Notes under the pieces: generated by a model
What the model saw: the letters and a program-made list of their open reading frames with translations, nothing else
The model's database searches: none
Told to the model about the DNA's origin: nothing
Program-made: the position numbers and the translations under genes
DNA from: Candidatus Bathyarchaeota archaeon B24
Lineage (GTDB): Archaea; Thermoproteota; CALKCG01; B24
Length of the DNA stretch: 64,000 nt
Reading direction: 5' to 3'
Assembly (NCBI GenBank): GCA_001593865.1
Contig: LUCB01000003.1
Coordinates: forward strand, 30,781 to 94,780
In this document: positions 3,797 through 29,383 of the stretch, piece by piece
Numbering within the stretch: the stretch's first letter is position 1
Layout: each line of letters opens with the position of its first letter

Positions 3797-4720
3797 ATGT
3801 CTAAGCCCTTGCCCATCATATTGGTTGTATTACTTATTATGCTTAGCTTATCCTTATCTGTGTTGGCTGAAGACGGTGACAGGGACTACGAGGTTTTACA
3901 GGTACGCGATGTAACTCCTACCATGCTTAAACCAGTGACGACTAATGTGACGGTTGAGTCTGCTACTGAGTATTTTGGAATGGGCGTTAAGCCAGCGATT
4001 ATATGCGTCTTCAGAGTGTGCAATGTTGCGTTTAAAACCCTTTGGCCTGGGGAGTCTCCGCTTAGGTCGGACATCCTAGTCATAACCACGAACCCGACTA
4101 GGGCAGTAAGAGATACATTTGAGTTTATAACTAGATGCGTTTCAAGACATAAATACATCCTTAAAAAAATCCCAGGTACATCTTCCATAAAACTGACACC
4201 TGAGAACTGGGTTTTCACGATAGTGAACGAACCTACAGGAGAGGCTGTTGAGATAAAGGTTAGAAAAGAAGTATTCCCTGAGAACTTATTCGAACTTAGG
4301 GCTTCTGTTAAAAGCAAGATCAAGGCTGGAGAGACCCCGAGTGAAGAGGAGATGAAGGCATTTAAAAAAGCTACGGCAGAATTCACCAAACGCTTAAAAA
4401 CCTGGAGTGATGAGGAGCTGTTTGAGGTTAGAACCTTCAGCTACACTCCCGAGCCGCTGGACTTGGAGTCTATGATAAGCTACTATCTCCCAGAAGCCCT
4501 TTCTGAATGGAGGAGGCTGAAGGGGGTCGAGGAGGAGTACAATACGCTCAAGACCGATTACGAGCAGCTTCAGACATCTTATCAGCAGCTGTTGTCTGAG
4601 GTGGAAGACTTAAGAACACAGCTTTCTCAAGCCCAAACCGTTCAGTGGATACTCGGCACGTTAACCGCTATATTCGTCATCGCGACAATTTACCTAGGTT
4701 TAGCTAGAAAACGAAGCTAA
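3797..4720 (+). CDS. Secreted, C-terminally anchored protein with a coiled-coil stalk; the globular domain is possibly FmdE/FwdE-like (weak)
   Basis: Signal peptide PIILVVLLIMLSLSLSVLAED. There is a heptad-rich stretch (EEEYNTLKTDYEQLQTSYQQLLSEVEDLRTQLSQAQ) followed by the TM helix ILGTLTAIFVIATIYLGLA-RKRS. A TATA-like element lies ~25 nt upstream. Confidence 0.6.
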   Translation: MSKPLPIILVVLLIMLSLSLSVLAEDGDRDYEVLQVRDVTPTMLKPVTTNVTVESATEYFGMGVKPAIICVFRVCNVAFKTLWPGESPLRSDILVITTNPTRAVRDTFEFITRCVSRHKYILKKIPGTSSIKLTPENWVFTIVNEPTGEAVEIKVRKEVFPENLFELRASVKSKIKAGETPSEEEMKAFKKATAEFTKRLKTWSDEELFEVRTFSYTPEPLDLESMISYYLPEALSEWRRLKGVEEEYNTLKTDYEQLQTSYQQLLSEVEDLRTQLSQAQTVQWILGTLTAIFVIATIYLGLARKRS

Positions 4721-4746
4721 AACAACTCCCTCACTTTTCTTCATTA

Positions 4747-5280
4747 TCACATTTTCTTTTCCCTAAGTAATCCATACATCAAAATCCAGAATGATCCGGC
4801 TAACATTCCGAAGCCTATTTTAGTGAGTAACGCCTTCTCCTCAGTCGGCGTCTTAGCCGGGCTTCTACTCACACCGACCTTCACCACTACATGTTTATCA
4901 AAACATTGACCAATGTTATCTAGAAAAAGCACATAGGTCTTGTTAGCCTCAGTATTCCAATGCGTCAACATATAACTAGTCGTATGCTCGACATTTGCGA
5001 TCGTTTCATAGTTCTCATTCGACAGAAATCTCTCATAGTTATCTTTATCCATAAACATGAGGGTTATACAGTGTTCATAGGTCCTCACTTCGACCACTAT
5101 CTCGACATTTGCATTGAAAGATAATTGTATGCTATAAGTCTCATCCACCTTTATAAATAGCTTATCCTCATAAATCCACTTATCCACCGATACTATAGTA
5201 GATAGTGATTGTGCAGCTAATATAGCATATATGCCGGCAATTAAAATCACTATGCCAAGATATATAAGCCTTCGGTCCAT
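4747..5280 (-). CDS. Bitopic membrane protein (N- and C-terminal TM, ~130-aa beta-rich ectodomain); paralog of 14341..14934
   Basis: N-terminal TM is LIYLGIVILIAGIYAILAA and C-terminal TM is IGFGMLAGSFWILMYGLL-REKK. Blocks IYEDKLFIKVDE / NVEIVVEV / DKDNYERFL / NKTYVLFLDN align with LYEDRFEMKREE / NVTVVTIV / YNETFQEFI / NRTMTYYFILYN of the 197-aa protein. Confidence 0.6.
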   Translation of the reverse strand: MDRRLIYLGIVILIAGIYAILAAQSLSTIVSVDKWIYEDKLFIKVDETYSIQLSFNANVEIVVEVRTYEHCITLMFMDKDNYERFLSNENYETIANVEHTTSYMLTHWNTEANKTYVLFLDNIGQCFDKHVVVKVGVSRSPAKTPTEEKALLTKIGFGMLAGSFWILMYGLLREKKM

Positions 5281-5430
5281 ATCCTTGATCTAAGAAATGA
5301 AGTAGAAATAGACCAAATTTAAATTTTTCTTTTCAAACTTTTCTTCTCTCTAGATTCAGTTGATAGTTTTCCTTGGAAAGTGAAAAGGCTTATATAAGGT
5401 TTCGTTCGATTTTAAATCCCGGTGTAACCA

Positions 5431-8400
5431 GTGAGACCGGTTAAGCTTTCAAGTCATCGGACTCATCCGGCCGTGTCTAAGGCCTTCCTAGTAACTCTTA
5501 TCGCCATGCTACCGCTGGCGTTAGTAGGTTCAATCCTTGTGTCACCAGCATATTCGCAGCTTCAACCTCAAAACCAAGAAGAACTAATGGCCATGTTCAA
5601 GGAAGTCCTAGATAACATTGACCAAAAAGAAATTATGGAGCATGTAGCCTTCTTTTCAAGCTGCGGGTCTAGGGTTACAGGGTATCCCGGCTTCTTCAAG
5701 GCCATGGATTATGTCGTCTCTAAATTTGAAGAATATGGTATTCAGCCCTACGGTGAGGACGGCTACTTCGAATACTTCTACATAACGATTCCCGTCGACT
5801 ATGGAGCTAACATATTGCTTGAGGATGGTGAGGTTCTCCACGGCTATAATCTTTGGCCTAATCTAGTTAACCCGTCGCCTTATAGGAGTCCGCCTGAAGG
5901 CGATTTATTGGTTTATGTCGGTGGAGGAACGTTCGACGACCTTTCTAAGGTAAACGTCACAGACCGATGGGTGTTGATGGATTTCGACAGCAGGTGGTTC
6001 TTCCGTCTGGCTGCGATGTTCGGCGCCAAAGGTGTAATATACATAGGTACTGGGAAAGAATCTAGGATGGAGGCGTTCCAAAAGCTATACAACGTACCGA
6101 TGGCGTTTCCGAAGATCTACCTAAACCCGGAGGACGGTCTTCGTCTGAAGGAGCTATGCGAGAAGCAGGGTGAGGTCAAGATCTGGATAAACTCGTTGAT
6201 GAGGTGGGAGCGCATACGGGTCGCCAACATAGTAGGCTTCATACCAGGCACCGCTAACGCCTCGGAGATAGGGGTCATAACAGCCTATTTAGATTCCTGG
6301 TCTATAGTCCCTGCCCTATCCCCTGGGGCGACCGATGCCCTAGGTATCTCCGCGCTCTTGAACTTCGCGAAGTTTTTGGCTAAGAACCCGCCTAGGCGTT
6401 CGGTCATGCTTGTCGTCCTAGCCGGGCACTGGCAGAGCTTATGGGGTGCTAGGGAATGGGTCGACAGGCACTTCGACATACTTGGGACTTCTGTGAAGTT
6501 CTTCGTAAGCCTAGACCTATCGGCTGGTAGCCAGCAATTAGCCGTATACAACCGTGGCAACGTATACTCATACACCAACCTGCAGACCCTAAACAGCCGA
6601 TACACATCGCTGATAAACCTCCTGTTCAGGACATACTTGCCTGTGCTGAGGGATGACTCTCTCCTCGGAGAACGCTTCGGCGCCTACTTCATAGACGAGA
6701 TACTGCTGACCTATCCTCCTTGGATAAGCGCATGCCCGCCTACGGAGTTCCTAGGGGCAACCTACTTCGACTCTGAGCCTTACGTAGCCGCATGCTACGG
6801 TGGAGGCTTCGCTTTCCATACGACGAACGATGCAAGAATCTATATGAAGGGCCCTGGCGACACTTATGACCGAATCCAGTGGGACAACTACTGGCCTCAA
6901 GTGCAGTTTATATGTACGTCGCTGTACGGTTTATTGAACGAGCCTGTGATAGACCTACCTCAGTCACCTTCGAGGCTGGAGGCTACAGGTGAGTGGGGCT
7001 ACTGCAGCTTGACGATCAAAGTCGTTAGCTACAATATGACGACGGCTTACTGGGACCCCTTCGACGCTGAGAGGCATCCAGAGGCGATAAACGACACGAT
7101 AGTTCATTACCAATCTACCGCGGCACCGGCTATGCAGGCTGTACCTTCATACGCGGCGTTCGGTGCGGCGTTCATCATGGGTGTACTAGATGTCATAGCT
7201 AAGCCTGATGAAAACGGCGTCGTGGTGATTAAGGGTATAAAGCCTTACACGAGCGGGATGGTAGATGCGTTTGTGATAAATAGCACTAACGGTGAGATAG
7301 AGTGGGCCACCGACATAGGCGTGTATTCGCCTTATCAGTCTAAGATCGCCTCTGTGACGACGGTAAATGCATCGTACTTATGTTCAATATTCAGGTGCGC
7401 AAGCATAGTTCTGTTTGCGTTATTCAATCCGTCCGACCTAAGCTCGATGCCGAACGTGGTGCTATACAACAGGCTGGCTCATGGACCATTGATTCAGCAG
7501 AGCTTCTTAGTTTCGATGTACGGTGACGTGATGGCGTTTATCCAACCGGATATACCGGTTGAGATCCTCATCACACGAGGCCGAGCATTCGGCATGGCGG
7601 CGACAGTGGCAACCTCCGGCGCTGCATTAGGCTCGGTAGGTTTCATCGGAGCCTTCCTCGGAGGAGGTGGTGGAGGTAGGTTCCCGATGGGTATTCTAGT
7701 GAACAGCACCGCTGATTTTCCAGAGGGATATGGATATAAAGTAAGCGCAGGAAAAACATTGAGAATACCGTTCACACCCATGCTCTACGCAAGGGACATC
7801 TTCTTGTTAAACGACGGTAGGGTGAAGCTGGCTGCGAAGTACTTTACATTTAACCCAGTCACCATAATGTTCCATGGATTAGCTGAAAAGTATCTAAAAC
7901 TGGCTTTAGAGGCATACAGGCAGAGAGACTATGGGCTGAGCTATGCATCGGCCTACGCAGCTTGGGCTTATGAGCAGGTAGCATACTACTCTATGATGGA
8001 TCTAATATGGCAAGTGATATACACCATAGTGGTGATATCCATCGCTATAATACCGTTCGCATATGCGATGAGCAGGCTCGTCGGGTTCGAAGGTCGTAGG
8101 CTAATAGCTGGTGTGATCATGCTCTTTGGAATCATGCTGATCGTGCTCGACATATTCCATCCAGGTTTCCACTTGGCTAGCAACGCCGGTATGGCGATCT
8201 TGGCATTCGGTACCGCCATAATAATACTGCCGCTACTGGGCTTCGTGATACGTGAAGCCATGATGAGCGCCAAGACTCTGAAGGAAAGAATGATCGGTAT
8301 GCACACCGCCGAGATAAGCCGCTCCGCCATAGCGTTTCAGGCCTTCTCGCTATCGATTCAGAACATGCGTAGACGACGTTTCATGACGGTGCTGACCCTA

Positions 8401-10125
8401 GTCTCCATAGTGATACTGGTCTTCTCGATGGTCACGTTCACCTCGCTTATGGCTGCACCTAGGCCTGTAGAGGACGTACGAACCATATCGGAGGGGGAGA
8501 CACCGCCGCTGTATCAGGGTATACTGATACGTAGGCCTGTGTGGTCGCCTATACCGGAGGAGATGTACTATCAGGTCATCCACCAGTTTAAGGGTACAGG
8601 CATATATTCGGCTAGGGGTTGGCTGTTCCCACCGCCTCCGCAGAGAGGTTTAGGGTTCTTCGCGTTCTCAGATAAGCTGATAACAAAGGTAGGTGCCGTC
8701 TTATTCCTGAGCCCTGAGGAAAAGGAGCTCTCCCACATAGACGAGATACTGCTACCCGGTAGCGACTGGTTTGGACCTGACGACGTTTACACATGTATCA
8801 TAAGTAAAACCATGGCTGATAACCTGACTAAAGAGTTGGGTAGGCCGATAACGATAGGCTCGGTTATACCGTTTCTAGGTATGAATCTTAGGGTTATAGG
8901 GATGTTCGACGGTGACCTTCTATGGTCTGGAAGCGAGGGTTTCGTAGATTTAGATGGTGAACCCATAACGCCGCTTATGCCGTTGATAACGACGGGTGCT
9001 GGTAGGGCTGTGCCGTTCCACTTCACCGGAGACTTGATAATGCTTATGCCTCTTAAGGCCTGCCTTCTACTTAGGGAGCGTGCCTACATAGTGAGCATAG
9101 CGTACAAGCCATATAACACGACTGCTATACGCGAGATCGCCCGTAACTTAGCCCTGAGGATCGCGACTGATGTGTATTACAGCGACGCGCCGGATAGAAT
9201 CGGGATCGTGAGATACCGGCAGTGGTTCACGGTCACAGGGTTTGAGACGTTCATAGCCCCGACGATAATCTGTAGCTTCACGATCTTGAACATGATGCTC
9301 GCTAACGTCCACTACAGAACCAGGGAGATCTCTATCTACATGGCTGTAGGCCTGTCGCCACTCCACGTTTCGATATTGTTCCTCGCAGAATCGCTAGTGT
9401 ACGCCCTGTTAGGGACGGTTCTAGGGTACGTGTACGGCGTGATCGGGTGCTGGATCTTCAACATATTCGGCCTATATCCGCCAGGATTCTACCCCAACTT
9501 CTCGTCGTTCTACGTGTTCATCGTGCTAGGGTCAGCCTCACTAGTAACCATACTCTCGACGGTTTATCCATCGATAAAGGCGTCGAGGCTTGTGACACCT
9601 TCCCTCGAGCGTAAATGGAGGGTTCCTCCGCCTCGTGGAGACGAGTGGGAGATACGGATGCCCTTCGTGTTCTCGGGTAGAGAGATCTACGGGTTCCTAG
9701 CGTTCGTGAACGAGTATTTAGACGCGCATAGGACCGAGGGAGTGGGTGCCTTCGCCACCTTCGGAGATATCGAATGGAAATCTGAGAGGGATCCGCTAGA
9801 GGAGAGGGATACTAAGACGTTGATAGCTAACGTACGTCTTGCGCCGTTCGACGTAGGCATCACCCAGAAGGTGATGGTTATAGCCGAATCGCAGAGGAAA
9901 CGACCGTATTCGCTTACCCTATACCTCCAGAGGACGACTGGGTTGTTAAGCGACTGGGTGAACTCCAACAGACCGTTCATAGACAACATGAGGAAGCAGC
10001 TGTTGATATGGAGAACGTTGAAGCAGACGGATAAGGAGAAGTACATCGACCTAGGGTTAACGTTATTTAGGAAGAAGCTCGGTATTGGTGACGAAGAATT
10101 TAAGAAGTATCTGGATCTAGAATAG
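5431..10125 (+). CDS. Giant (1564 aa) membrane fusion protein. Domain order: anchor, PA/M28-peptidase-like ectodomain with degenerate catalytic motifs, helical stalk, 3-4 TM helices, MacB/FtsX-type permease, ~170-aa cytoplasmic C-terminal domain
   Basis: ITAYLDSW, PGATDALGISALL and LAGHWQSLWGAREW align with M28 motifs AHxDSW, GAxD(D/N)xSG and EExGLxGS, but the metal and catalytic residues are replaced. LSIQNMRRRRFMTVLTLVSIVILVFSM matches MacB TM1. NMMLANVHYRTREISIYMAVGLSPLHVSILFLAESLVYALLGTVLGYVYG is an FtsX domain. The GTG start is uncertain; an alternative GTG lies at 5473. Confidence 0.8.
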   Translation: MRPVKLSSHRTHPAVSKAFLVTLIAMLPLALVGSILVSPAYSQLQPQNQEELMAMFKEVLDNIDQKEIMEHVAFFSSCGSRVTGYPGFFKAMDYVVSKFEEYGIQPYGEDGYFEYFYITIPVDYGANILLEDGEVLHGYNLWPNLVNPSPYRSPPEGDLLVYVGGGTFDDLSKVNVTDRWVLMDFDSRWFFRLAAMFGAKGVIYIGTGKESRMEAFQKLYNVPMAFPKIYLNPEDGLRLKELCEKQGEVKIWINSLMRWERIRVANIVGFIPGTANASEIGVITAYLDSWSIVPALSPGATDALGISALLNFAKFLAKNPPRRSVMLVVLAGHWQSLWGAREWVDRHFDILGTSVKFFVSLDLSAGSQQLAVYNRGNVYSYTNLQTLNSRYTSLINLLFRTYLPVLRDDSLLGERFGAYFIDEILLTYPPWISACPPTEFLGATYFDSEPYVAACYGGGFAFHTTNDARIYMKGPGDTYDRIQWDNYWPQVQFICTSLYGLLNEPVIDLPQSPSRLEATGEWGYCSLTIKVVSYNMTTAYWDPFDAERHPEAINDTIVHYQSTAAPAMQAVPSYAAFGAAFIMGVLDVIAKPDENGVVVIKGIKPYTSGMVDAFVINSTNGEIEWATDIGVYSPYQSKIASVTTVNASYLCSIFRCASIVLFALFNPSDLSSMPNVVLYNRLAHGPLIQQSFLVSMYGDVMAFIQPDIPVEILITRGRAFGMAATVATSGAALGSVGFIGAFLGGGGGGRFPMGILVNSTADFPEGYGYKVSAGKTLRIPFTPMLYARDIFLLNDGRVKLAAKYFTFNPVTIMFHGLAEKYLKLALEAYRQRDYGLSYASAYAAWAYEQVAYYSMMDLIWQVIYTIVVISIAIIPFAYAMSRLVGFEGRRLIAGVIMLFGIMLIVLDIFHPGFHLASNAGMAILAFGTAIIILPLLGFVIREAMMSAKTLKERMIGMHTAEISRSAIAFQAFSLSIQNMRRRRFMTVLTLVSIVILVFSMVTFTSLMAAPRPVEDVRTISEGETPPLYQGILIRRPVWSPIPEEMYYQVIHQFKGTGIYSARGWLFPPPPQRGLGFFAFSDKLITKVGAVLFLSPEEKELSHIDEILLPGSDWFGPDDVYTCIISKTMADNLTKELGRPITIGSVIPFLGMNLRVIGMFDGDLLWSGSEGFVDLDGEPITPLMPLITTGAGRAVPFHFTGDLIMLMPLKACLLLRERAYIVSIAYKPYNTTAIREIARNLALRIATDVYYSDAPDRIGIVRYRQWFTVTGFETFIAPTIICSFTILNMMLANVHYRTREISIYMAVGLSPLHVSILFLAESLVYALLGTVLGYVYGVIGCWIFNIFGLYPPGFYPNFSSFYVFIVLGSASLVTILSTVYPSIKASRLVTPSLERKWRVPPPRGDEWEIRMPFVFSGREIYGFLAFVNEYLDAHRTEGVGAFATFGDIEWKSERDPLEERDTKTLIANVRLAPFDVGITQKVMVIAESQRKRPYSLTLYLQRTTGLLSDWVNSNRPFIDNMRKQLLIWRTLKQTDKEKYIDLGLTLFRKKLGIGDEEFKKYLDLE

Positions 10126-10131: not shown

Positions 10132-10137
10132 GTCTGT

Positions 10138-12099
10138 ATGACCGAGCAGGAGATTCGCCCTGGACTGACTTGGAGGTCAGTGTTAGCTCTGATATTCTCC
10201 CTATTTCTAGTGCAGCCGGTGATGATATACTACTACCTCATAAGCGCTCAATGGTTTCCGCTTCAGGCTTGGATAGTGATCCTGCTATGGTCGGAGATCG
10301 CGCAGTTCCTAGGCTCCCCGTTGACTAAACAAGAACTCTTCATCCTGCTGAGCTTCCAGTGGATGGCCTCCTACTATGCCATGCTATTCAGCATGGGCGG
10401 CCCATACGACTTGGTGAAGAATGCATACATGGCCTACAGCCCTGAAGCACAGGCCCTAGGGATCTCACAGTACGTTCCGTCTTGGTGGGTACCGCCTCAA
10501 AGCGAACTCATAAGATTGACCATGGAACGCACGTTCCTCTACCTCGACCCGGTGTGGCTTATCCCGTTGGGGATAGCGGTTTTAGCATTGATATTTAACA
10601 TGGTCGCCGATATATCCATGGGTTATTTCACCTACTCGCTCTACGTGAAAGTGGAGAAGCTTCAGTTCCCCGCCGCTAGGGCAGCCGCCGAGACCGTCTT
10701 AACGCTGGCTGAGAGAGACCCACTACATATGAGGATACTGATGCTATCTATTCTCTTCGGTGCGCTCTACGACTTATTCGTGAGCTTCCTACCATACCTA
10801 CTCGGACCTTACCTAGCCAGTGGAGGAGCCGCGATCTACACGGTTCTTCTACCGATCGCTCAAACCTTCGACATGACACCTGTGATAGCGCACTTCCTAC
10901 CAGGGTTCGGCTTCGCCTTCACCTTGAACTTGATGACGTCTCCGGCAGGCTACATATCAGGGTTCATACTCCCCATCGACATATGCCTAGCCCAGTTCCT
11001 AGGAGCCTTCAGCTACTACTGTATAGGAACGCATCTGATAACGAGGTTTAACCTCTGGCCGGCTGAAAGTCCATATGATATTTCGTGGCCGCTGGCTATA
11101 CTTGTCCAAAGGTCTCAGCTATACTTCTACACGAGCCTCACCATAGGTATGGCCTTGGCAGCCACGTTCCTTCCGATGCTGATAAGACCTAAATCGTTCA
11201 TCAGGGCCTTCAGTTCGCTGGCTAAAGCGAAAGGTGCAGAGGGAGAGGGTCCTCCGCTATACTTGCTACTCGCGGCTTTCCTAGGGGCGTGCACTGGAGG
11301 CATGCTACTAGTATACTTCCTGACAGGGTTCCCGCTTTGGATTCTAGCAATATTCATGATCGGCGGTTCGTTCTTCGCGTCGTTTATGGGTGCAAGCGCC
11401 GCAGGTGTTACCACTACCGGATTTAACGTGCCTATGCTTCCGCAGCTTATGATATATCTGACCGGTTGGCAGGATAAGCGCATATGGTTTGCTCCGACAA
11501 ACATATACGCCGGAGGCCCAGGCATAGCCCAGGCGTTTATGCAGGCGGACATACTGAAGGCTAGAAAGTCCGAATATATCAAGACCTATATACTGATATT
11601 CTTCGTAGGCGTTCTCGTTACCATACTCTTCGTGTCATATTTATGGACTCTATCGCCTATACCGTCTGGAGCGTATCCTGCTACGATGGTCTACTGGCCG
11701 GTCGACGCCATGAACTGGGCTAGATGGCAGGTCTGGATGTGGTCCGGCTACCTGTTCAGGAAAGACCTTCTGATCGGAGGATTCGCTATAGGCTCGGTGA
11801 TATACCTGATAACGGATCTTATATTCCATAAACCATACTTCCTAGTGGCTTTCATCAGCGGAGCATATGGTAGCTGGTTTGGATATACCATGCAGCTTCC
11901 ATACACGCTGGCCCAGCTGATAGGGTCGATAATCGGTAACGTGGTCGTAGCCAGAGTTCTAAGTAGGAGGACAAAGATACCTTACGGCGTATTCGCCTAC
12001 AGGTTCTTCATGGGTACCACGATCGGATGGGGTCTGATGGAGAGCATAAGAGCGTTACTGGTGCTAGTCAGCCGAGCGATGTGGCTACTGCCATACTAG
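10138..12099 (+). CDS. Polytopic membrane protein (653 aa, ~14-16 TM); distant relative of 12215..14254 and 15101..17095, possibly OPT-superfamily-like
   Basis: Highly hydrophobic throughout. The motif YVKVEKLQFPAARAAAETVL sits at the same relative position as WLDIERVPFPYVIATHELI and WIDVEKVPFTHVMAAHEII in the two downstream paralogs. Confidence 0.75.
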   Translation: MTEQEIRPGLTWRSVLALIFSLFLVQPVMIYYYLISAQWFPLQAWIVILLWSEIAQFLGSPLTKQELFILLSFQWMASYYAMLFSMGGPYDLVKNAYMAYSPEAQALGISQYVPSWWVPPQSELIRLTMERTFLYLDPVWLIPLGIAVLALIFNMVADISMGYFTYSLYVKVEKLQFPAARAAAETVLTLAERDPLHMRILMLSILFGALYDLFVSFLPYLLGPYLASGGAAIYTVLLPIAQTFDMTPVIAHFLPGFGFAFTLNLMTSPAGYISGFILPIDICLAQFLGAFSYYCIGTHLITRFNLWPAESPYDISWPLAILVQRSQLYFYTSLTIGMALAATFLPMLIRPKSFIRAFSSLAKAKGAEGEGPPLYLLLAAFLGACTGGMLLVYFLTGFPLWILAIFMIGGSFFASFMGASAAGVTTTGFNVPMLPQLMIYLTGWQDKRIWFAPTNIYAGGPGIAQAFMQADILKARKSEYIKTYILIFFVGVLVTILFVSYLWTLSPIPSGAYPATMVYWPVDAMNWARWQVWMWSGYLFRKDLLIGGFAIGSVIYLITDLIFHKPYFLVAFISGAYGSWFGYTMQLPYTLAQLIGSIIGNVVVARVLSRRTKIPYGVFAYRFFMGTTIGWGLMESIRALLVLVSRAMWLLPY

Positions 12100-17116: not shown

Positions 17117-17161
17117 ATGTAGATTGCATATGTATCGACGAAGGGTTTGGTGGTTTTAGCG

Positions 17162-21428: not shown

Positions 21429-22287
21429 TAATTACGTCCACTAAGACCGGTGTTAAACCCGCTATTAGAGCCTTCTTCTTCGGCATTCGGCAGAGTATGT
21501 GAAGCGCTACGGAGCATATCAGGTAGCTCCAGACCGAGAACGAGTACCCGATGTTGAAGAGAACTTGCGGTATCGTAAGTGTCTCCCACTCAGTTTTGTA
21601 GGTGTTTGTCATCGTGTCTGCTATTTCGATGTTTTTCAGGTTCATCCGTACAAGGGTTATAGAGGATGAGAGCATGACGACAGCTGTATCGACGGCTACG
21701 ACGACCGTTAACGGAGGGACTACGAAGAGTATCATGGCTGCTTCGATAACCTTGCCTATTATGTAAACGCTTATCGAGTATGTAGTCGCCATGAGGATGG
21801 TTGTGAAGCTTCTCTCCGCTCTGAGTAGCCACGTCATTAAATAGTATATCGCTGTGGTTCTGAGGATGAAATAGCCGTTATTTATAAGGGACATGACCGC
21901 CAAACGTATGGCTGTCGCGTAATCCATCAGCGATGGGTTTAGGGGTTCTAAGAGGTCGGGTCTTTTAAGGATGTAGAGGTTTGTCTTGAAGAGCATGAAA
22001 AGTTGTTTGTTGATTATGTCCATCGCTATCAGTATCGCAAGTATCGCTATAGGACCTCCTATATCTGGGTTCTCCGCTATCTCCTTGAACGCTTTGAACG
22101 GGTTGGCTATGACAAGCCCTGTTCTTCTGGAGAACTCTCTAAGCCATAAGGCTACATGTTTGAGGGTTGATTTTAGACCACCTAGGATTATCGTCGCTGC
22201 GGTTTGTAGTGTTTGAATTTTTCCACGTCGTTTCCTCCGTCTTCTGGGTTTTCTTCTCCGCCTTGTTTTAGGCTTGGTCTCTCCCAA
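21397..22287 (-). CDS. Yip1-domain-like multi-pass membrane protein with a polybasic N-terminus
   Basis: The N-terminus is KTRRRRKPRRRRKRRGK. Then NPFKAFKEIAENPDIGGPIAILAILIAMDIINKQLF plus 5 TM resembles the Yip1/DUF1282 organisation. Its 3' end overlaps convergent 20652..21428 by 32 nt. Confidence 0.6.
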   Translation of the reverse strand: MGETKPKTRRRRKPRRRRKRRGKIQTLQTAATIILGGLKSTLKHVALWLREFSRRTGLVIANPFKAFKEIAENPDIGGPIAILAILIAMDIINKQLFMLFKTNLYILKRPDLLEPLNPSLMDYATAIRLAVMSLINNGYFILRTTAIYYLMTWLLRAERSFTTILMATTYSISVYIIGKVIEAAMILFVVPPLTVVVAVDTAVVMLSSSITLVRMNLKNIEIADTMTNTYKTEWETLTIPQVLFNIGYSFSVWSYLICSVALHILCRMPKKKALIAGLTPVLVDVIIKLILYGGFF

Positions 22288-22582
22288 TTTTTCTACATCT
22301 CCGGTTTCGTTCGCTAAGACTTCTAGAAGCTTTTAGAAGCGACATCTAATATATCTTTCCCACACCTCTGCCGAACTCCACTTGAGCGAGGTCGGTGCGG
22401 GGGTTTAACCGTGGAATGGGGAGCGGCTGGGATATTTATTGCCAGTTTATTTTTTAGCGGAGGTTCTTGGTTTTCTTTTTTAGAGCGCTTTAAGAGGAGG
22501 TATGTGAAGTCTTCTGTGTGGGTTTTTAGAAAACTTAAAAAGTAGTTATGTGTTGGTTAGTAGTTAGGGGCTCTGGGGAGGG

Positions 22583-25500
22583 TTGGAGTTGAGGACTGGT
22601 TCTTTTAAAATCTTTTTGGCTGTTTTAGCGGTTATGTTGTTGTTTCCTGTTTCTACTTCGACGGTTGCTCAAGAAGCCTCTAAGGATGTAAAATGTACGT
22701 TAGTTATGTATATTATGAATTTTATGACGAGTTCCCCGGAGCCTAGAATTAATGTGTCGGCTATTTTAACCAACGTAACTTTAAGTGGTGTTACGGATGA
22801 ATTTGGATGTGTGAAATCTTCTTTCAACGCTTCAAAGGATCTCGTTAATAATCTTATGTTGAATGAATTATCGTTGTATGGGAATTTTACTGTGATAAGG
22901 ATTCAGGATTATTTGATGGAAGACTTGCAATATGATTCGTTTTATTCTGAATCTACTGTGACTTACACGGGTTTGGCTATAAGACCAAGGGTTGTGGAAA
23001 GTAGGAGGGAGACTCTTCTGTATTATTATGTGTACGTGTTAAAGAGTAGAGTGGTGAACGTGAGTGACTTGGATGTCTCGACCATGCAGATACTTCCTAG
23101 CGGCGATTTACGTATTAGATGGCGGAGAAAGCTTATCTTGGATGCCAGACCTGCTGTTCCTATAGATAGGGGGGCTAGTCGTTATGAGAGTCTTTATCTG
23201 TTCCCGTTAAACTATACGGTTAATGTAAAAGTAATGGTTTATCGCTATGGTTTCTTAGTTGATGAGTATTCTGTTAAAACGCTTGTAAGTGGTAACAGAA
23301 CCTACGTAAATATTATGGGGCCGATTCTAGATATTAAGATTAACGAAACGTTAAAGCCTTTTGAGGAGGAGATAGCTACGCTTAAGTTCTTGGGTTTATC
23401 TATGATCGATGAGGAGAGGCTTCTCATAAGGATTAATAATCAGAAAGACAGTATTCTGAGGTTGATCGAAAATAGGAGTTATGATCCTGCTTTCGCTCAA
23501 TTAAGGTTCTTAGCTAAGAAGGTTGCTGAGTTAGGAAGTAGGCTATCTAACTTAGGTGCCTCTTTAACATGGTCTTCTATACTGGTTATGGCGTTTATCT
23601 ACGCGTTTTCATCGCTTTTACCTACTCTGATGACTGACGATGCTAAAAGAAAGCTTATCATGAAATTTGCGATATATTTCTCTTTGTTGTTGATTTTCCT
23701 ATATAGCCATAACGAGTTTAAGATCGCAGTATCTATGATATCTTCTAACATCCTTCTAACCGATATTAAATACCTTGATGACTTCACAGTACTGCTTATG
23801 GGTGTGGGCGTGGGGAGTCTAGGGGTTCTTATACCCACTTTGATATCGCTTTATTCTCCCCCGGTGGTGAGCTTAAGCCTAGACTTGAGTATAAGAGATC
23901 TTAAACGACATCTATCAAGATCTCTTCTAACGATTTTCGCGTTCTCCCTCATAATAGCGTCGACGCTGGCTGTTTTTAAGATATCATATAGCCACATGCT
24001 CTCCGAGACGGAGACGATTGCTCGATTCAAGCGCGACATAATATGTCTGCAATCCACGACCAACAATATAATCGTTAAAGACAATTTAATATTCTTGAAG
24101 TCTATGCCTTGGATTAACTCATCCTATTTGTTTAAATCACTGTATGGTGATATTTCATTGGATAGTCTCTCAGGTTTTGCCGCTATCAGGTTGATTTCGC
24201 GAGATTATGGTATGCTTGAGCAGCGGTTCGACATTTTAGGAGTCGACCCGGAGTTTCTAGATGAGTACTTCAACTTCTCTACGACGATTACTAAAGGCGG
24301 GTACCTCTCTGGAAGTGAGAGAGCTATCCTTGTTCCAGCCTCGTTGGAGTATTACTTGAGGCCGTTAGATAGGGTTAGGATGCGCTTTGTGATCGTGAGT
24401 TCTGTAGGTCAGCAGTTAACGGATGTGGCTGAATACGACTTTGGAGAGTTTATTGTTAAAGGGTTCTTCGACCCAGACTCTGTCGATAGGATTACACTTC
24501 CTGATGGGTCGCCGTTGATAGATGTATCGTATAAGACGGTAATAGTACCCGGAGACCTCCTGCCAGATTCGATAGATGCGCGTCATCTGACTATAACAAT
24601 TCCTAGGCTTAGAAACATCGTATCCTTCTCGGGACCAACGTACATAGACATACTTAAAGTCCAATATGCGTTCTTATTGCCAGACCCCAGTAGCGGAGTC
24701 GACGTTTATGAGAAGGCTAGGGAGCTTATGGATCTGACGGGCTTCCGGACGTTTGGTTTCTCAAACGGAGTCTGTAAAACATATGAGGAATTGTATGTTC
24801 TGAACGTCGTGGGCTTCTCATCGATCGTGCCTCCCCTCGTGATAGTTACGCTTATAATCGTGTTGGTCATGAACTCCGTCATCTATGAGCGGCGTAGGGA
24901 GATATGGACCCTAGCTGTATTAGGCGGTAACCCACGTAACATAACAAACATGTTTCTTACAGAGGCGTTGATCACAGGAATCCTGTCGACAACCATAGGC
25001 TATCTATGCTATACCACCGTCTACTTGTTGTCCGGGGTGCTGATACCCATCATACAGAGCTTGAACCCTGAGCTTGTTAAGCTCTTCGTGGAGATGAAGT
25101 CCGCATCAGGCTTCGACCTTTCCTCCATCCTTGTAGTGTTGTTCATAGGTTTGGCAGTCCCCGTGATCGGCAGCTACATACCCTGTATAAAGGCTCACGG
25201 CCTAACCCTCCTCGGTAGACCTCCTAAGAGGAACATAAGTGAAGATGTACGGACGAGAGGGGAGTTAGCTGAATATTCTCTCCCGATCAGAGCTACACCT
25301 TTCGACGGGGAGATGCTTTATAACTATCTGAAAGACAATTTCCTCACGAAGACCTTCCAGGTTAAGAAGCTCTCTGGGAACGCTTATCAAGACGGGACCT
25401 TCGACTTTAAGTTTACGCTACAGTTCAGGAACGTGCTCACCGAGTGTAACTTAAAGGGTATTAGACGGGGAGATACGATATATCCTGTTCTAACATTCCC

Positions 25501-26191
25501 CGCTAAGTTCATCGACGCTATGGACCTACACAAATTCATATACGACCTCGAGAAGATTTCGCTCGGATATCCCTCGTGGAGGGAGAAGAATATACGGCTT
25601 GAGATAACTAGGGTTAAACCTGTTACCCGAGTTAGGACTGTGGACGATGTTCTACGGGATGTCAGAGTAGTTCGTGAACAGCTCCGTGTCGTCGATAGTA
25701 AGCTTAAGACGCTTGAAAAACTTAAAGCTACGACTCCGTCGGAGCTGCTGACTGAGTATGAGAAGAAATACCTAGCCCAAGCGGAGAGGCTTAACCGTAT
25801 CATACGACGTCTTGGTCTGGAACTCGAACCATTCTACGAAGAGCTTAACAAGGAGGCTCAGAAGCTGAACACCGAGATAGAGCGGTTGAACATCGCTTAT
25901 AAGCTTGGAGAGATACCTGAGGAGGAATATAGGTCTTCTGTGGAGCCTCTGAAGAATAGGCTTAGCGAGGTTCAGAAGAAGCTTAGCGATATAAAGTTTG
26001 TGATGACCCAGCTTAAGATGCCGAGAGCGAGGCTTACGAGGATAAGCTTGCCGGCGCGGAGGCTTACGCGGCGGAGGAGGGTCGAGGAAACTCCAGGTCT
26101 CATGTACTGTCCATACTGTGGAAGCACGAACCTGATAAAGACCCCAAGCGGCTCGATAATATGCGGAAGATGTCGTAGAAGACTACGTTAA
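22583..26191 (+). CDS. Giant (1202 aa) membrane fusion protein. Domain order: signal peptide, glycosylated ectodomain, helical stalk, 4 TM helices, MacB/FtsX-type permease, cytoplasmic domain, long coiled coil, C-terminal zinc ribbon
   Basis: Signal peptide is FKIFLAVLAVMLLFPVSTSTVAQE. MacB TM1 is IRDLKRHLSRSLLTIFAFSLIIASTLAVF. The FtsX domain is VLVMNSVIYERRREIWTLAVLGGNPRNITNMFLTEALITGILSTTIGYLCY. Heptad-rich residues ~1010-1150 form the coiled coil. The terminal sequence is YCPYCGSTNLIKTPSGSIICGRCRRRL (CxxC...CxxC). TTG start with uncertain position. Confidence 0.8.
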   Translation: MELRTGSFKIFLAVLAVMLLFPVSTSTVAQEASKDVKCTLVMYIMNFMTSSPEPRINVSAILTNVTLSGVTDEFGCVKSSFNASKDLVNNLMLNELSLYGNFTVIRIQDYLMEDLQYDSFYSESTVTYTGLAIRPRVVESRRETLLYYYVYVLKSRVVNVSDLDVSTMQILPSGDLRIRWRRKLILDARPAVPIDRGASRYESLYLFPLNYTVNVKVMVYRYGFLVDEYSVKTLVSGNRTYVNIMGPILDIKINETLKPFEEEIATLKFLGLSMIDEERLLIRINNQKDSILRLIENRSYDPAFAQLRFLAKKVAELGSRLSNLGASLTWSSILVMAFIYAFSSLLPTLMTDDAKRKLIMKFAIYFSLLLIFLYSHNEFKIAVSMISSNILLTDIKYLDDFTVLLMGVGVGSLGVLIPTLISLYSPPVVSLSLDLSIRDLKRHLSRSLLTIFAFSLIIASTLAVFKISYSHMLSETETIARFKRDIICLQSTTNNIIVKDNLIFLKSMPWINSSYLFKSLYGDISLDSLSGFAAIRLISRDYGMLEQRFDILGVDPEFLDEYFNFSTTITKGGYLSGSERAILVPASLEYYLRPLDRVRMRFVIVSSVGQQLTDVAEYDFGEFIVKGFFDPDSVDRITLPDGSPLIDVSYKTVIVPGDLLPDSIDARHLTITIPRLRNIVSFSGPTYIDILKVQYAFLLPDPSSGVDVYEKARELMDLTGFRTFGFSNGVCKTYEELYVLNVVGFSSIVPPLVIVTLIIVLVMNSVIYERRREIWTLAVLGGNPRNITNMFLTEALITGILSTTIGYLCYTTVYLLSGVLIPIIQSLNPELVKLFVEMKSASGFDLSSILVVLFIGLAVPVIGSYIPCIKAHGLTLLGRPPKRNISEDVRTRGELAEYSLPIRATPFDGEMLYNYLKDNFLTKTFQVKKLSGNAYQDGTFDFKFTLQFRNVLTECNLKGIRRGDTIYPVLTFPAKFIDAMDLHKFIYDLEKISLGYPSWREKNIRLEITRVKPVTRVRTVDDVLRDVRVVREQLRVVDSKLKTLEKLKATTPSELLTEYEKKYLAQAERLNRIIRRLGLELEPFYEELNKEAQKLNTEIERLNIAYKLGEIPEEEYRSSVEPLKNRLSEVQKKLSDIKFVMTQLKMPRARLTRISLPARRLTRRRRVEETPGLMYCPYCGSTNLIKTPSGSIICGRCRRRLR

Positions 26192-26206
26192 AAAGGGAGA
26201 GTGATT

Positions 26207-29200
26207 TCAACTTCTAGGCCCGGTCGTACTGCTCATTAGGGAACGCTTATATCTCTCCCAGTCTTTAAGCGCATCCCTTACTACGCTTACCGTCAGCTCT
26301 ATCGCCCGTTCAGGCATACCTTTGACCTCAGGCTTCGACAAGAGAGTTATGTAGAACCTGTCCGAATCACGTGGTCTCATAGCTCTAAGCTCGTTTATGG
26401 TAGCATACTCCTTATACCTATGTGTAAAGCGTACTCTGACGACCTCAGTACCGTCTACTAGAATCTCTTCTTCGAGCTTGAGGTTTTCGATGCGTTCGAA
26501 AAGACCTGAGACCTCTTTCAACCTATCGGTTATGAACGCCGTGAAGAACGGCTTCTCGCGTCTATGAACCCTGACGGGCATAGATATACTTCTTTCATGG
26601 TAGACCTTGAAGATCTTTTCCTCTCTCTTAACCTTCTCAGCCTCAGGGATCTTGATTTTTCTTATGAGCGATGGTGTAGCCATGACCGCTGCTCTGACCG
26701 CAGGTACAACCGCGGATAATATCGAAACGGATATCGAAACCAGCAGTCCTATAACACCCCAGTACCATTCAAGCTTCTCCCTGACACCTATCTGCCCCGC
26801 AGGTCCCAGCAGGCTCATAAGCCTGTAGGCGCCTAAACCAGCGTAGTAGCCTATACCGCCCCCTATCAGACCCATGACCATCGACTCAGCCAGGAAGACG
26901 CTGGCTATGTGCGCCGGGTTAAGCCCTAACGCCGCTAAGAGAAACATCTCGTTTCTACGCTCGTAGACTAGGTTAATCATCACCATGAACACGTTCAGGA
27001 ATACTAGCGTAGCAGGTACCAGAAGCTCCTTGAACCCCTTAATCTCCCATTTTTCACCCGTGTAGACTTTCGTGACCTCACCGTTGAAGAAGACCCAAGC
27101 GTAGTATTCTCTCAGAGCCATCTTGTTGGCGAAGTTCTTCAACGTATTTTCATCGCTCATAGGAATGAAGACCGCGGATATACCTACCTTTTCCGAGAGC
27201 CCGGTTGTCCCTCCCTCTGAGGATGGGAGCGCTATTATGGTCCAAGCGTTGAAAACTGCGAACTCCGTAGCGTTGACGGGCTGAAGCTTTCCTTCGCTGG
27301 TGAGCTTATAGGGTGCTATGGGCTTACCGTTAAAATCGTTAACTCCTAGGATCGCTGGGTTTACGTAGCCTACTAACGTAAAGTTCCATGTCTGCGTTTC
27401 CACGCCTCCCATTAACCTAGACACTTGAATCTTATCTCCGGGTTTTACCCCGAGTCTCCTAGCTAAGCTTTCGGTTATCGCGATACTCATATTTTCCTCA
27501 AAGAGCTCCTTCGGCAGGTAGTTGGCTATTCCTAAGACCTCGGCTCCCTCAGCGGTCAAGCCGACTACGCCTAAGAGGTCTACGTTACGCCCGCTTAAAG
27601 CTCTTAAACGTACCACGGAGGAGTTTGAGGGAACGTTCTCCACCCTGATCATAAATTTTTCGGCTCCATAGGCCTTTAATGCCTCCAGCTCCCCTGATGC
27701 AAAAAACTGCTGTACGCTTGAGACCTTCGTCGCGTTTAGAGGAGCTTTCTCTAGAAGACACCCGTTCACGTCGATGTTTGTGGACGACGGTCCTTCGACC
27801 ACTATACCCTGAACCCTAGAGAACGATGTAAACGCCGTCAGCACCATTACAAGCATCGCTAGGGATAGGATGCAGAAGCTAGACCTGAGCTTTCTACGTT
27901 TAACGTTACGCTTGCCTATGGAGAATATGACGGTGATTATGCTCTTAAGCGACGCCCTCCCCTCTATCTCCGGTGGCCTATAGATCCGCGGGAAGACGAA
28001 ATATAGCGCAACAGTTAAGGCTATGGACGCTATGATCACGGCGATAAAGAACAGGTTCCCTCGAACGGTTACAGTCTTAAAGCCGAATACCTTTCCGAAG
28101 CCGAATAGGTCGAACACTATCTTACACTGGGGATTCATGATTATCCTAAAGCCTGGGTAGATGTAGTACAATGAAACTATGATCAGCGGGTACACCACCA
28201 ACGTTGTGATCAGCTTCTTCTTAGTGTCCTCGAATAGGAAGCTACCTATAGCTATCGAGAAGACGGCGAAGAACGGTGGATAGAACGTCGCATGAGACTG
28301 GGCTAGAGCCCTCATAATGCCTAGACGGTTTTCAAGAAGCCTCAGGCTATAGTATGCCTCTTCGAGATACTGAAACCTAACCGCTTCGAGCTCGCGCTCG
28401 CTCGGGCTTGGGTTCAACGGCGGTAGTAGGTTTTTAGCCGTCTCGACGTTTTGCACAACTCCACGCTGAAGATCCTCTCTCTCAGCTCCGACGTAGAACC
28501 CCTCCTGCTCGGCCAGAGCTAGCTTCTCCTCGAGGTCTCTGGTTAAAGTCTCGAGTGTGTCGGCGCTCACCTTATACATCTCGCTTCGAATGTCTACGAG
28601 TATCCTCTCCCCCTTACGTAGCTTTATCGGTTTACCTTGGAAGCCTATAAGCATGGAAAGGATGTCTTTTCTCTTAGTACGTTCGTTAAGAAACTGCATC
28701 TTCGCTACTAGATAGATAGATGTATCGGCTGGTACTATGACCACGTTTTTCACGAATAAATCTCTCGAAGATAGATACTGGATATCCGCCCCCACTATCC
28801 CTAGCCTCTTTTTAACGCTGTGGACCGGAGGCTCACCGTATATTACGACGGTCCCGTTAGGGAGTGTAGGGGTTTTAAAGGTCGAGGAGTCCACAGGAGT
28901 GATTATGTACCATGAGGGAGCGGATTTGCTTAGTATATACCACATCTCGGCTTTTCTCTTCGGATAGATCTCTATCACAGCCCCTGGTACAAGGTTGAAG
29001 CTCAGTTCCATCGAGCTTTTAATCCCACCTTTTGAAACGTCTTCAGGATACAACGCCGGTACATAGTCGATCAACCCCGTGGACGAATTCGTATGGAGCA
29101 CATAGATCAGATACTCGCATCTCAGGCCATACAAGTCATACATCGGTAAGGCGATTTCATAAAAGCCCTCGCTATCGGTGTATGTGATAAAGTACCTCTG

Positions 29201-29383
29201 CTCAAAGCTTCCACGCCAGGGTATCGCTATTATCGTGGCGTTGAAGATAGGCTCAGACGTATAGTAGTCGACGACCTTACCATAGATCCTCAAGCTCTCC
29301 TCGTATGACTGAGCCATAGCGCTAAAAGCTATTAAGGACAGCATCGCTAGAGCGATGGGAAGCAGGATCCGCCGTCTCCGCAT
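26207..29383 (-). CDS. Giant (1058 aa) membrane fusion protein. Domain order: signal peptide, carboxypeptidase-regulatory-like beta-sandwich and ectodomain, helical stalk, 3 TM helices, MacB/FtsX-type permease, ~160-aa cytoplasmic C-terminal domain
   Basis: Signal peptide is RRRRILLPIALAMLSLIAFSAMAQS. LRIYGKVVDYYTSEPIFNATIIAI...TDSEGFYEIALP has the CarboxypepD_reg pattern. MacB TM1 is KRNVKRRKLRSSFCILSLAMLVMVLTAFTSF. A MacB periplasmic-domain-like stretch reads ITESLARRLGVKPGDKIQV...FTLVGYV. The FtsX domain is NVFMVMINLVYERRNEMFLLAALGLNPAHIASVFLAESMVMGLIGGGIGYYAG. Confidence 0.8.
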   Translation of the reverse strand: MRRRRILLPIALAMLSLIAFSAMAQSYEESLRIYGKVVDYYTSEPIFNATIIAIPWRGSFEQRYFITYTDSEGFYEIALPMYDLYGLRCEYLIYVLHTNSSTGLIDYVPALYPEDVSKGGIKSSMELSFNLVPGAVIEIYPKRKAEMWYILSKSAPSWYIITPVDSSTFKTPTLPNGTVVIYGEPPVHSVKKRLGIVGADIQYLSSRDLFVKNVVIVPADTSIYLVAKMQFLNERTKRKDILSMLIGFQGKPIKLRKGERILVDIRSEMYKVSADTLETLTRDLEEKLALAEQEGFYVGAEREDLQRGVVQNVETAKNLLPPLNPSPSERELEAVRFQYLEEAYYSLRLLENRLGIMRALAQSHATFYPPFFAVFSIAIGSFLFEDTKKKLITTLVVYPLIIVSLYYIYPGFRIIMNPQCKIVFDLFGFGKVFGFKTVTVRGNLFFIAVIIASIALTVALYFVFPRIYRPPEIEGRASLKSIITVIFSIGKRNVKRRKLRSSFCILSLAMLVMVLTAFTSFSRVQGIVVEGPSSTNIDVNGCLLEKAPLNATKVSSVQQFFASGELEALKAYGAEKFMIRVENVPSNSSVVRLRALSGRNVDLLGVVGLTAEGAEVLGIANYLPKELFEENMSIAITESLARRLGVKPGDKIQVSRLMGGVETQTWNFTLVGYVNPAILGVNDFNGKPIAPYKLTSEGKLQPVNATEFAVFNAWTIIALPSSEGGTTGLSEKVGISAVFIPMSDENTLKNFANKMALREYYAWVFFNGEVTKVYTGEKWEIKGFKELLVPATLVFLNVFMVMINLVYERRNEMFLLAALGLNPAHIASVFLAESMVMGLIGGGIGYYAGLGAYRLMSLLGPAGQIGVREKLEWYWGVIGLLVSISVSILSAVVPAVRAAVMATPSLIRKIKIPEAEKVKREEKIFKVYHERSISMPVRVHRREKPFFTAFITDRLKEVSGLFERIENLKLEEEILVDGTEVVRVRFTHRYKEYATINELRAMRPRDSDRFYITLLSKPEVKGMPERAIELTVSVVRDALKDWERYKRSLMSSTTGPRS

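Follow-up and report, generated by a model that had tools for sequence, protein, structure and literature searches.

Known ATP-binding cassette (ABC) systems of type VII comprise a handful of bacterial envelope machines, namely MacAB, LolCDE, FtsEX, HrtBA, BceAB and YbbAP. The permeases of LolCDE, MacB, HrtBA, YbbAP and FtsEX are built on an FtsX core of four transmembrane (TM) helices, with a large extracytoplasmic domain between TM1 and TM2 and a coupling motif between TM2 and TM3. The same elements were recognised in three giant proteins, designated G1, G2 and G3, which are encoded along with three polytopic membrane proteins, P1, P2 and P3, in the genome of Candidatus Bathyarchaeota archaeon B24. 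The region occupies positions 3797 to 29383 of the window, a stretch of 64,000 nucleotides (nt) of contig LUCB01000003.1 (positions 30,781 to 94,780), and coordinates given below for this genome are positions in the window.

The polytopic proteins resemble, in predicted fold and in size (about 650-680 amino acids), transporters of the OPT/YSL family (TC 2.A.67), such as barley Yellow Stripe 1. All prokaryotic OPTs fall into the iron-siderophore subdivision of the family tree, many of them have been suggested by genome context to carry peptides, and at the time of a 2011 review biochemical characterisation was still lacking for every bacterial and archaeal OPT homologue (PMC3061005).

The giants differ from the described type VII systems in several respects. 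They are 1000-1560 amino acids long, compared with about 400 for canonical members, and they carry an N-terminal anchor, a variable ectodomain, a stalk, three extra TM helices and a cytoplasmic tail. In archaea they have no ATPase in cis, and they have an obligate OPT-fold transporter partner, which was not found described for any type VII system. The first-pass annotation of this DNA could name no described system of this composition, and literature on the G1-P1 type of pairing, DUF6785, M28-FtsX fusions, orphan or ATPase-less MacB/FtsX proteins and archaeal type VII ABC systems likewise yielded nothing relevant. These proteins stand for a branch of mechanotransmission permeases that is widespread and uncharacterised, and that is tied to a secondary transporter. 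The region itself is tentatively read, at somewhat less than an even chance, as three paralogous copies of an undescribed two-part module consisting of a giant FtsX-fold protein and an OPT/YSL-fold permease.

Giant proteins with a type VII ABC permease core

Every open reading frame (ORF) named in the first-pass annotation was found in its place. The giants and the FtsX domain of the first of them are encoded as follows:

5431..10125, plus strand: G1, 1564 amino acids (Pfam FtsX and M28; hhalign to G3)
9265..9588, plus strand: FtsX TM2-TM4 domain of G1, including the TM2-TM3 coupling-helix motif (Pfam and alignment)
22583..26191, plus strand: G2, 1202 amino acids, shared core at about residues 199-920 (Pfam, hhalign)
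26207..29383, minus strand: G3, 1058 amino acids (AlphaFold2, Foldseek, Pfam)

All three giants match the Pfam FtsX model (PF02687), scoring 52.2 (G1), 39.1 (G2) and 37.1 (G3) bits against a cut-off of 25.5. Profile-profile alignment with hhalign joined residues 587-1528 of G1 to residues 64-1043 of G3 (probability 100%, E 3e-58, 846 columns) and residues 199-919 of G2 to residues 209-954 of G3 (99.4%), while G2 aligned to the G1 family with a probability of 99.0%. As judged from these profiles, the similarity among the three giants extends far beyond the FtsX domain. In G1 a signal anchor is followed by a PA/M28-like pseudopeptidase ectodomain and, from about residue 587, by the shared core, which comprises beta domains, a helical stalk, about three TM helices, a LolC/MacB-type permease with the FtsX domain at residues 1279-1386, and a family-specific cytoplasmic tail (residues 1388-1564).

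An AlphaFold2 model of G3 was built on 23 homologues, with a predicted local distance difference test score (pLDDT) of 84.5 and a predicted template modelling score (pTM) of 0.69. In its N-terminal half an anchor helix precedes domains rich in beta structure (30-264), a stalk of three long helices (266-365) and about three TM helices. Next come an amphipathic helix (479-496) and TM1; an extracytoplasmic domain of alpha/beta type (520-782) separates the latter from TM2-4, which include a short cytoplasmic helix (810-818) between TM2 and TM3, and the chain ends in an alpha/beta cytoplasmic tail (914-1049). In Foldseek searches against the Protein Data Bank (PDB) the best matches were LolC/LolE, the pneumococcal MacB-like protein 5xu1, HrtB, MacB, YtrF, YbbP and BceB. 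The match to LolCDE (7mdx_A) had an E value of 4.5e-12, about 480-500 columns were aligned with full-length LolC, LolE and MacB, and the template modelling score (TM-score) against the isolated periplasmic domain of LolE (5udf) was about 0.5. The N-terminus of G3 is Ig/pilin-like and matches the SpaA pilin in Foldseek, with a weak CarboxypepD_reg match. The first-pass annotation had described the giants as an ectodomain, a stalk, three or four extra TM helices, a MacB-type permease and a tail; this description is borne out by Pfam, hhalign and the G3 model, and it was correct because the model shows that domain order and matches LolC/LolE and MacB in Foldseek.

Domain, fold and coupling motif place the giants in the type VII ABC permease superfamily. 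The Pfam MacB_PCD match was below threshold, and matches to the MacB, LolC/E, ADOP and FtsX models of NCBIfam were likewise sub-threshold, the best reaching 22-35 bits against equivalog cut-offs of 255-966. Because these scores are far below the equivalog cut-offs, the giants are, on sequence grounds, not orthologues of LolCE, MacB, FtsX or any named system. No P-loop was found in the giants, and the possibility of a hidden nucleotide-binding site within them was rejected for that reason. Their ectodomains had also been called glycosylated, which rests on counts of N-x-S/T sequons only; these number 0.8-3.1 per 100 amino acids in the ectodomains versus 0-0.3 in the tails.

The tail is a marker of the family. 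Searching with the 177 residues of the G1 tail alone returned 1324 clusters at 50% identity, in which the match was always C-terminal; matching proteins longer than about 1400 amino acids measured 1429-1860. The tail domain is conserved in bacterial members too. Pfam searches with the isolated tails and with the G2 ectodomain gave no match, and a tail-domain profile had no significant match among PDB sequences. In G2 most of the family tail is replaced by a coiled coil and a zinc ribbon, an unusual cytoplasmic appendage for an FtsX-fold permease. Within the C-terminal 330 amino acids of G2 (25199-26188, plus strand) the coiled coil resembles CdvA, with a sub-threshold score of 27 bits, and the zinc ribbon, of TFIIB type, stands at the very end.

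OPT/YSL-fold partner proteins

Three polytopic proteins are encoded between G1 and the remaining giants:

10138..12099, plus strand: P1, 653 amino acids, OPT/YSL-fold polytopic permease (predicted), obligate partner 3' of G1 (AlphaFold2, Foldseek)
12215..14254, plus strand: P2, 679 amino acids, DUF6785+DUF6784, putative OPT-superfamily permease (Pfam)
15101..17095, plus strand: P3, 664 amino acids, DUF6785+DUF6784, putative OPT-superfamily permease (Pfam)

P2 and P3 are 35% identical and belong to DUF6785 and DUF6784, with both scores above the cut-off in each protein (110.2 and 60.3 bits in P2, 114.4 and 59.4 bits in P3). The Pfam OPT model (PF03169) matched P2 just below its gathering score (24.0 versus 25.8 bits) and gave no match to P1 or P3. 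For P1 no match was obtained with any Pfam model, including DUF6785 and DUF6784, or with NCBIfam; hhalign nevertheless aligned the P1 family to the DUF6785 family over 563 columns (probability 99.5%, E 5e-23). The AlphaFold2 model of P1 (pLDDT 86, pTM 0.87) matched barley Yellow Stripe 1 (7wst/7wsr) in Foldseek, with TM-scores of 0.65/0.70 and an E value of 3e-9, and none of the other matches had an E value below 0.04. Profiles of the P1 and DUF6785 families found no significant match among PDB sequences.

Since the P1 model matches Yellow Stripe 1 and hhalign joins P2 and P3 to P1, the three proteins are predicted, from the model, to be divergent permeases of the OPT/YSL superfamily. They had been considered three related proteins of unknown function. 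Their relatedness holds, with P1 as a remote member of a single superfamily, whereas their status as unknowns does not. Besides fold and size, the near-threshold OPT match of P2 links them to the characterised family; they differ from it in a sequence identity of about 15%, in the lack of any Pfam match for P1 and the assignment of P2 and P3 to DUF6785/DUF6784, and in the invariable coupling of P1 to a giant FtsX-fold gene.

Conservation of the G1-P1 pair

A total of 44 related loci, 40 archaeal and four of bacterial type, were collected, and the first 36 were searched with all window proteins; genome contigs were scanned for G1 relatives with a profile from a seven-sequence alignment. More than 300 full-length relatives of G1, measuring about 1500 amino acids and combining M28 with FtsX domains, were found in Thermoproteota (Bathyarchaeia, Thermofilaceae, Thermosphaera), Baldrarchaeia and some bacteria. 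In all 32 loci with downstream DNA, including locus L037, which was reached from the P1 side, a P1-like gene lies directly 3' of the G1-like gene. The pair spans Bathyarchaeia, Thermofilaceae, Brockarchaeota, other Thermoproteota, Armatimonadota and Planctomycetota. The G1 stop codon lies 20-83 nt 5' of conserved P1 residue 11 in 21 of 22 loci. In the window the two genes are separated by 12 nt containing GGTGA; Shine-Dalgarno coupling had been noted between the first giant gene and the first polytopic gene. So strict an adjacency in archaea and bacteria, with only a few nucleotides between the genes, speaks for a putative stoichiometric partnership of G1 and P1.

Other members of these families accompany the pair less regularly. 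In 24 of 37 G1-family loci, with two truncated by a contig end included in the count, DUF6785 genes are present no more than 10 kb away, and approximately ten loci contain G3-like genes of about 1000 amino acids; the families named in the first-pass annotation thus do co-occur outside this genome. The gene order G1, P1, G3-like, DUF6785 is seen in L012, L017 and L036, and a G3-like gene adjoins a DUF6785 gene in L017, L026 and L036. A Thermofilaceae operon (L002, L031, L033) contains, in this order, DUF6785, a 495-amino-acid anchored protein, a URO-D-family protein and a G3-like protein. The best match of DUF6785 genes in distant loci is P3, and the P3 type is the commonest near G1 and G3-like genes in other archaea.

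The 25-kb stretch had also been regarded as one island. It is not a conserved unit, because an orthologue of G3 with 69% identity (L041 13352-14545, L042 9503-10696) is surrounded by unrelated genes (RFC, TatD and radical-SAM), and the bitopic and FmdE-like genes described below are not conserved. A phage-type integrase gene directly 3' of this orthologue in L041 and L042 hints that G3-type genes move. Gene order thus makes the G1-P1 pair the conserved unit, which DUF6785 and G3-like genes often join.

A degenerate M28 ectodomain

Residues 266-379 of G1 match Pfam Peptidase_M28 with 40.6 bits (cut-off 21.3), and some G1 relatives carry a PA domain. In alignment with the solved M28 enzymes 3iib and 6hc6, AHLDS is replaced by AYLDS and AEE by HWQ in G1; the zinc-ligand His is thereby Tyr, and the catalytic/zinc Glu-Glu pair is Trp-Gln. 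Among 30 G1-family members, 26 have Tyr at the zinc-ligand position and 26 have [YWF]-Q in place of Glu-Glu; a conserved distal (C-terminal) His is absent. A role of G1 as an active aminopeptidase was rejected, as the canonical M28 catalytic residues are missing.

By analogy with the transferrin receptor, the M28 domain of G1 is most likely a binding module. In the transferrin receptor and PSMA (M28B), too, a membrane anchor carries an ectodomain of PA and M28-like parts, and the former shares with G1 the loss of the catalytic residues; the G1 ectodomain matches the transferrin receptor and glutamate carboxypeptidase weakly (E 0.008-0.01). The difference lies in this marginal similarity (E about 0.01) and in a wholly different membrane part. 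A second parallel is FtsEX-EnvC, in which a catalytically dead peptidase-fold domain is governed by an FtsX-type permease. In contrast to EnvC, the dead domain of G1 has the M28/PA fold instead of LytM and is fused instead of being a separate adaptor, and the organisms considered here are without peptidoglycan and have no known amidase partner.

The ATPase question

The first-pass annotation described the giants as ATPase-less, pointing out that the only ATPase nearby is of DrrA type with its own ABC-2 permease. The latter assignment was upheld:

2657-3670: DrrA-type ABC ATPase (drrA model TIGR01188)
1911-2789, minus strand: ABC-2 permease ORF adjoining the ATPase gene

The ATPase scored 323.8 bits against the drrA subfamily cut-off of 312.45, and the permease 72.9 bits with ABC2_membrane. 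This ATPase was rejected as the motor of the giants, as it has its own permease and is present in near relatives only. The 5' end of the ABC-2 permease ORF has probably been placed too far upstream; its relatives are genes of 249 amino acids with a 4-nt overlap of the ATPase stop codon, as would suit translational coupling. Among the 36 window ORFs scanned (most, not all, of the large ones) no other ABC ATPase domain (Pfam ABC_tran) was found.

A cognate ATPase of the LolD/MacB/FtsE clade, fused or alongside, was not found among the scanned ORFs of the window; four bacterial-type clusters do contain one. These belong to Armatimonadota (L003), Tepidisphaeraceae (L037) and two further loci, L004 and L043, classed as bacterial from neighbouring genes. 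All four contain a six-gene cluster coding for a G1-like protein, a P1-like protein, protein X (about 300 amino acids), a PqqD-like protein, a small FtsX protein (219-330 amino acids) and an ATPase whose best matches are LolD, MacB, YbbA, DevA and FtsE. The presence of a LolD-clade ATPase and a second FtsX permease resembles the LolC/LolE arrangement. The added genes are located as follows:

L003: 16926-19797
L004: 16805-19590
L037: 12128-15742
L043: 16920-19924

No relative of protein X, the PqqD-like protein, the small FtsX protein or the cluster ATPase was found in the window or in archaeal loci, the later of which were examined through Pfam lists. In L043 a separate M28 peptidase of 561 amino acids is encoded just downstream of the six-gene cluster.

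The major coupling helix of these permeases is positioned between TM2 and TM3 (PMC5985334). The motif at this place has the consensus Y-E-R-x-R-E-I and is equally conserved in archaeal and bacterial members of the G1 family; its copies in the window are HYRTREI (G1), YERRREI (G2) and YERRNEM (G3). The term ATPase-less therefore describes the archaeal neighbourhood, not necessarily the machine, since all four bacterial clusters do carry a LolD-clade ATPase and a small FtsX protein. For archaea an ATPase encoded elsewhere is more likely than none, because the bacterial clusters contain a LolD-clade ATPase and the archaeal giants keep the coupling motif. The tail does not replace the ATPase, as bacterial members with an ATPase in cis also keep it.

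Accessory and neighbouring genes

The stretch had been described as devoted almost exclusively to membrane and secreted proteins. Exceptions are a cytoplasmic oxidoreductase and a decayed URO-D-family gene. The stretch also encodes a transporter of the major facilitator superfamily. Features in and around the region, besides the giants and their partners, are the following:

330-1823: Peripla_BP_2 binding protein, at the left end of the window
3797-4720, plus strand: FmdE-like, coiled-coil, C-terminally anchored protein
4747..5280, minus strand: bitopic protein 1, 177 amino acids, divergent from G1, lineage-specific accessory
14341..14934, plus strand: bitopic protein 2, 197 amino acids, with a TM segment at either terminus and beta-rich in between, lineage-specific accessory
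17147..17882, plus strand: URO-D-family gene remnants, split by frameshifts into four short ORFs
19249-20391: GFO/IDH/MocA oxidoreductase, cytoplasmic
20652-21428: anchored protein
21397..22287: Yip1-like protein
29583-30947, plus strand: M20 peptidase, divergent from G3
30960-32480, plus strand: protein of 506 amino acids with no Pfam match, 3' of the M20 peptidase gene

The two bitopic proteins, previously taken for paralogues, are real paralogues with 24% identity over 199 amino acids. Both copies are kept in position in five relatives that are about 80% identical, and the family is confined to near relatives. A beta-rich protein of about 495 amino acids (L002 6419-7891, minus strand), with an N-terminal signal, a C-terminal TM anchor and no Pfam match, is encoded next to DUF6785 or G1 genes in ten archaeal loci; it has no homologue in the window and may have the same role as the bitopic proteins.

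The FmdE-like gene was rejected as a conserved part of the module, having no homologue in related loci; its position is taken in the approximately 80%-identical relatives by a TrmB-family regulator (e.g. L005 8431-9282) unrelated to the FmdE-like protein. The anchored protein at 20652-21428 and the Yip1-like protein were also rejected as conserved parts, as no relatives of either were found in related loci, those of the near relatives ending before that position. The protein of 506 amino acids was seen in Bathyarchaeota clusters only.

The four ORFs at 17147-17882 all match one URO-D-family protein of locus L008, and, as they stand in different frames, this segment is a decayed gene broken by frameshifts. 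Nine of 44 loci have intact URO-D-family genes next to or within the clusters, with three copies in L044, and in Thermofilaceae such a gene stands inside the operon. The Peripla_BP_2 gene is adjoined in near relatives by a gene for a haem/corrinoid-type ABC ATPase, and this cluster is confined to near relatives.

Proposed mechanism and alternative explanations

The module would consist of two parts. Part A would be a giant with a type VII ABC core, three extra TM helices, a stalk, a family-specific tail and a variable ectodomain, the latter being a presumably dead PA/M28 domain in G1, Ig/pilin-like in G3 and uncharacterised in G2; part B would be an OPT/YSL-fold secondary transporter (P1, P2 or P3). 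The ectodomain may act outside the membrane as a tethered receptor or adaptor, capturing the substrate or a substrate-producing hydrolase, comparable to the degenerate LytM domain of EnvC under FtsEX. Conformational changes transmitted through the stalk and the LolC-like domain would then pass the substrate to the OPT-fold partner, which would import it using the proton gradient. In archaea the cycle would probably draw on a LolD/MacB-type ATPase whose gene lies elsewhere in the genome, while in the bacterial version the ATPase and a small FtsX partner would be supplied by the same operon. Such a capture device with an OPT-fold importer, type VII ABC-like and served in archaea by an ATPase in trans, is the explanation we lean towards, tentatively and with confidence falling a little short of evens.

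PqqD-family domains bind peptides, and peptidase genes are frequent neighbours: M20 in the window, two M16 genes in L003, S9 and M28/M20 in L002, M14/S9/M19/M24 in L040 and M28 in L043. Because of the OPT fold, the genome context of prokaryotic OPTs (PMC3061005), the peptidase-type ectodomains and neighbouring peptidase genes, and the PqqD-like protein, oligopeptides are the most likely substrate, a metal chelate or a tetrapyrrole-like compound being the main alternative. The first-pass annotation had suggested substrate capture or peptide uptake; this is also favoured here, with the OPT/YSL fold of P1 as backing. Several observations weigh against capture and import of peptides by a module of this kind. 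The sole structural relative of P1 carries iron-phytosiderophore, not peptides, and the recurrent URO-D-family genes are unexplained by peptides. In the window neither P2 nor P3 adjoins G2 or G3, and G3-like genes are also found singly among unrelated genes with no OPT-like neighbour. As for the energy source, no LolD/MacB/FtsE-clade ATPase was found within 10 kb in the 40 archaeal loci, and no fused ABC_tran domain among the approximately 150 homologues listed.

A rival reading is uptake of a metal chelate or tetrapyrrole, in which the dead M28/PA ectodomain, similar to that of the transferrin receptor, would bind a metal-chelate, haem-like or corrinoid-like ligand, the YSL-like partner import it and URO-D-family enzymes process it in the cytoplasm, a reading we regard as doubtful. 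In its favour, the only structural match of P1 is the Fe(III)-phytosiderophore transporter YS1, and prokaryotic OPTs all belong to the iron-siderophore subdivision (PMC3061005). The weak similarity of the G1 ectodomain to the transferrin receptor and glutamate carboxypeptidase (E 0.008-0.01), the URO-D genes (9/44 loci, the Thermofilaceae operon and the decayed copy in the window), the Peripla_BP_2 gene at 330-1823 with its adjoining haem/corrinoid-type ABC ATPase in near relatives, and the appearance of the haem extruder HrtB among the fold matches of G3 point in the same direction. The transferrin-receptor matches are marginal, however, and URO-D, a multi-copy family in these archaea, is found in only about one-fifth of the loci; the Peripla_BP_2 cluster is restricted to near relatives, and peptidase neighbours are at least equally frequent. 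If, instead, the giants act like FtsEX or LolCDE in envelope remodelling or in the anchoring of surface proteins, with surface proteins, hydrolases or lipid-anchored proteins being controlled or extracted by them, the OPT-like genes would be merely co-regulated neighbours. LolC and LolE are indeed the best fold matches, the degenerate peptidase domain recalls EnvC under FtsEX (PMC7668044), unrelated anchored ectoproteins recur (the bitopic pair and the protein of about 495 amino acids in ten loci), and G3-like genes without an OPT partner occur. This role is nonetheless unlikely, given the strict G1-P1 adjacency in archaea and bacteria with gaps of a few nucleotides and the failure of accessory anchored proteins to be kept between lineages.

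Transport could also run outwards in two steps, with the OPT-fold protein exporting a compound, for instance one derived from peptides, and the giant MacB-like protein expelling it from beneath an S-layer or outer membrane. The substrates of MacB-type pumps are already beyond the cytoplasmic membrane (PMC5985334), and the bacterial set of PqqD-like protein, small FtsX and ATPase recalls export clusters for peptide products. Characterised OPT/YSL proteins are importers, though, no conserved biosynthetic genes were found in the archaeal loci, and adaptor or outer-duct genes are absent, all of which makes export distinctly unlikely. Lastly, no ATPase might take part in archaea: proton flux through the OPT-fold partner would drive or gate the FtsX-fold module, or this module would be no more than a static scaffold, for which we see only a small chance; a variant in which the OPT-fold partner or the family-specific cytoplasmic tail drives or gates the conformational cycle is held to be just as improbable. 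The lack of a suitable ATPase within 10 kb in 40 archaeal loci and of a fused nucleotide-binding domain in any of the homologues listed would be explained in this way, as would the conserved extra tail and three extra TM helices, absent from canonical members; on the other side, the coupling-helix motif is conserved as in ATP-driven members, and bacterial orthologues with an ATPase in cis keep the same tail.

Should this two-part module indeed serve capture and import, it would constitute a new nutrient route for archaea that ferment peptides or scavenge cofactors, such as Bathyarchaeia and Thermofilaceae. DUF6785/DUF6784 and prokaryotic OPT proteins are here placed in a functional context for the first time. 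The signature tail occurs in at least 1300 clusters at 50% identity, from hot-spring and sediment archaea and several bacterial phyla. The split between archaeal members without an ATPase in cis and bacterial members with one, plus a small FtsX protein, is a natural experiment on how this fold is energised; were the ATP-independent alternative true, the archaeal proteins would be the first ATP-independent, secondary-transporter-coupled representatives of the type VII ABC fold.

Setting of the locus

The window contains chromosomal genes encoding RNA polymerase subunit B, aEF-1alpha, ATP-dependent DNA ligase and enzymes of the leucine pathway, and no tRNA or Rfam matches were found within it. 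Metagenome-assembled genomes of Candidatus Bathyarchaeota contain identical or nearly identical copies of the proteins encoded in the window. By G1 (about 80% identical), the nearest species representatives are metagenome-assembled genomes of Bathyarchaeia with the isolate names DRTY, JZ and QZM, which we take to be hot-spring sampling sites. The G+C content is 0.405 at 22001-24000 and 0.426 at 4001-6000, compared with about 0.50 in the remaining window, and the operon from G1 to P3 has the background composition.

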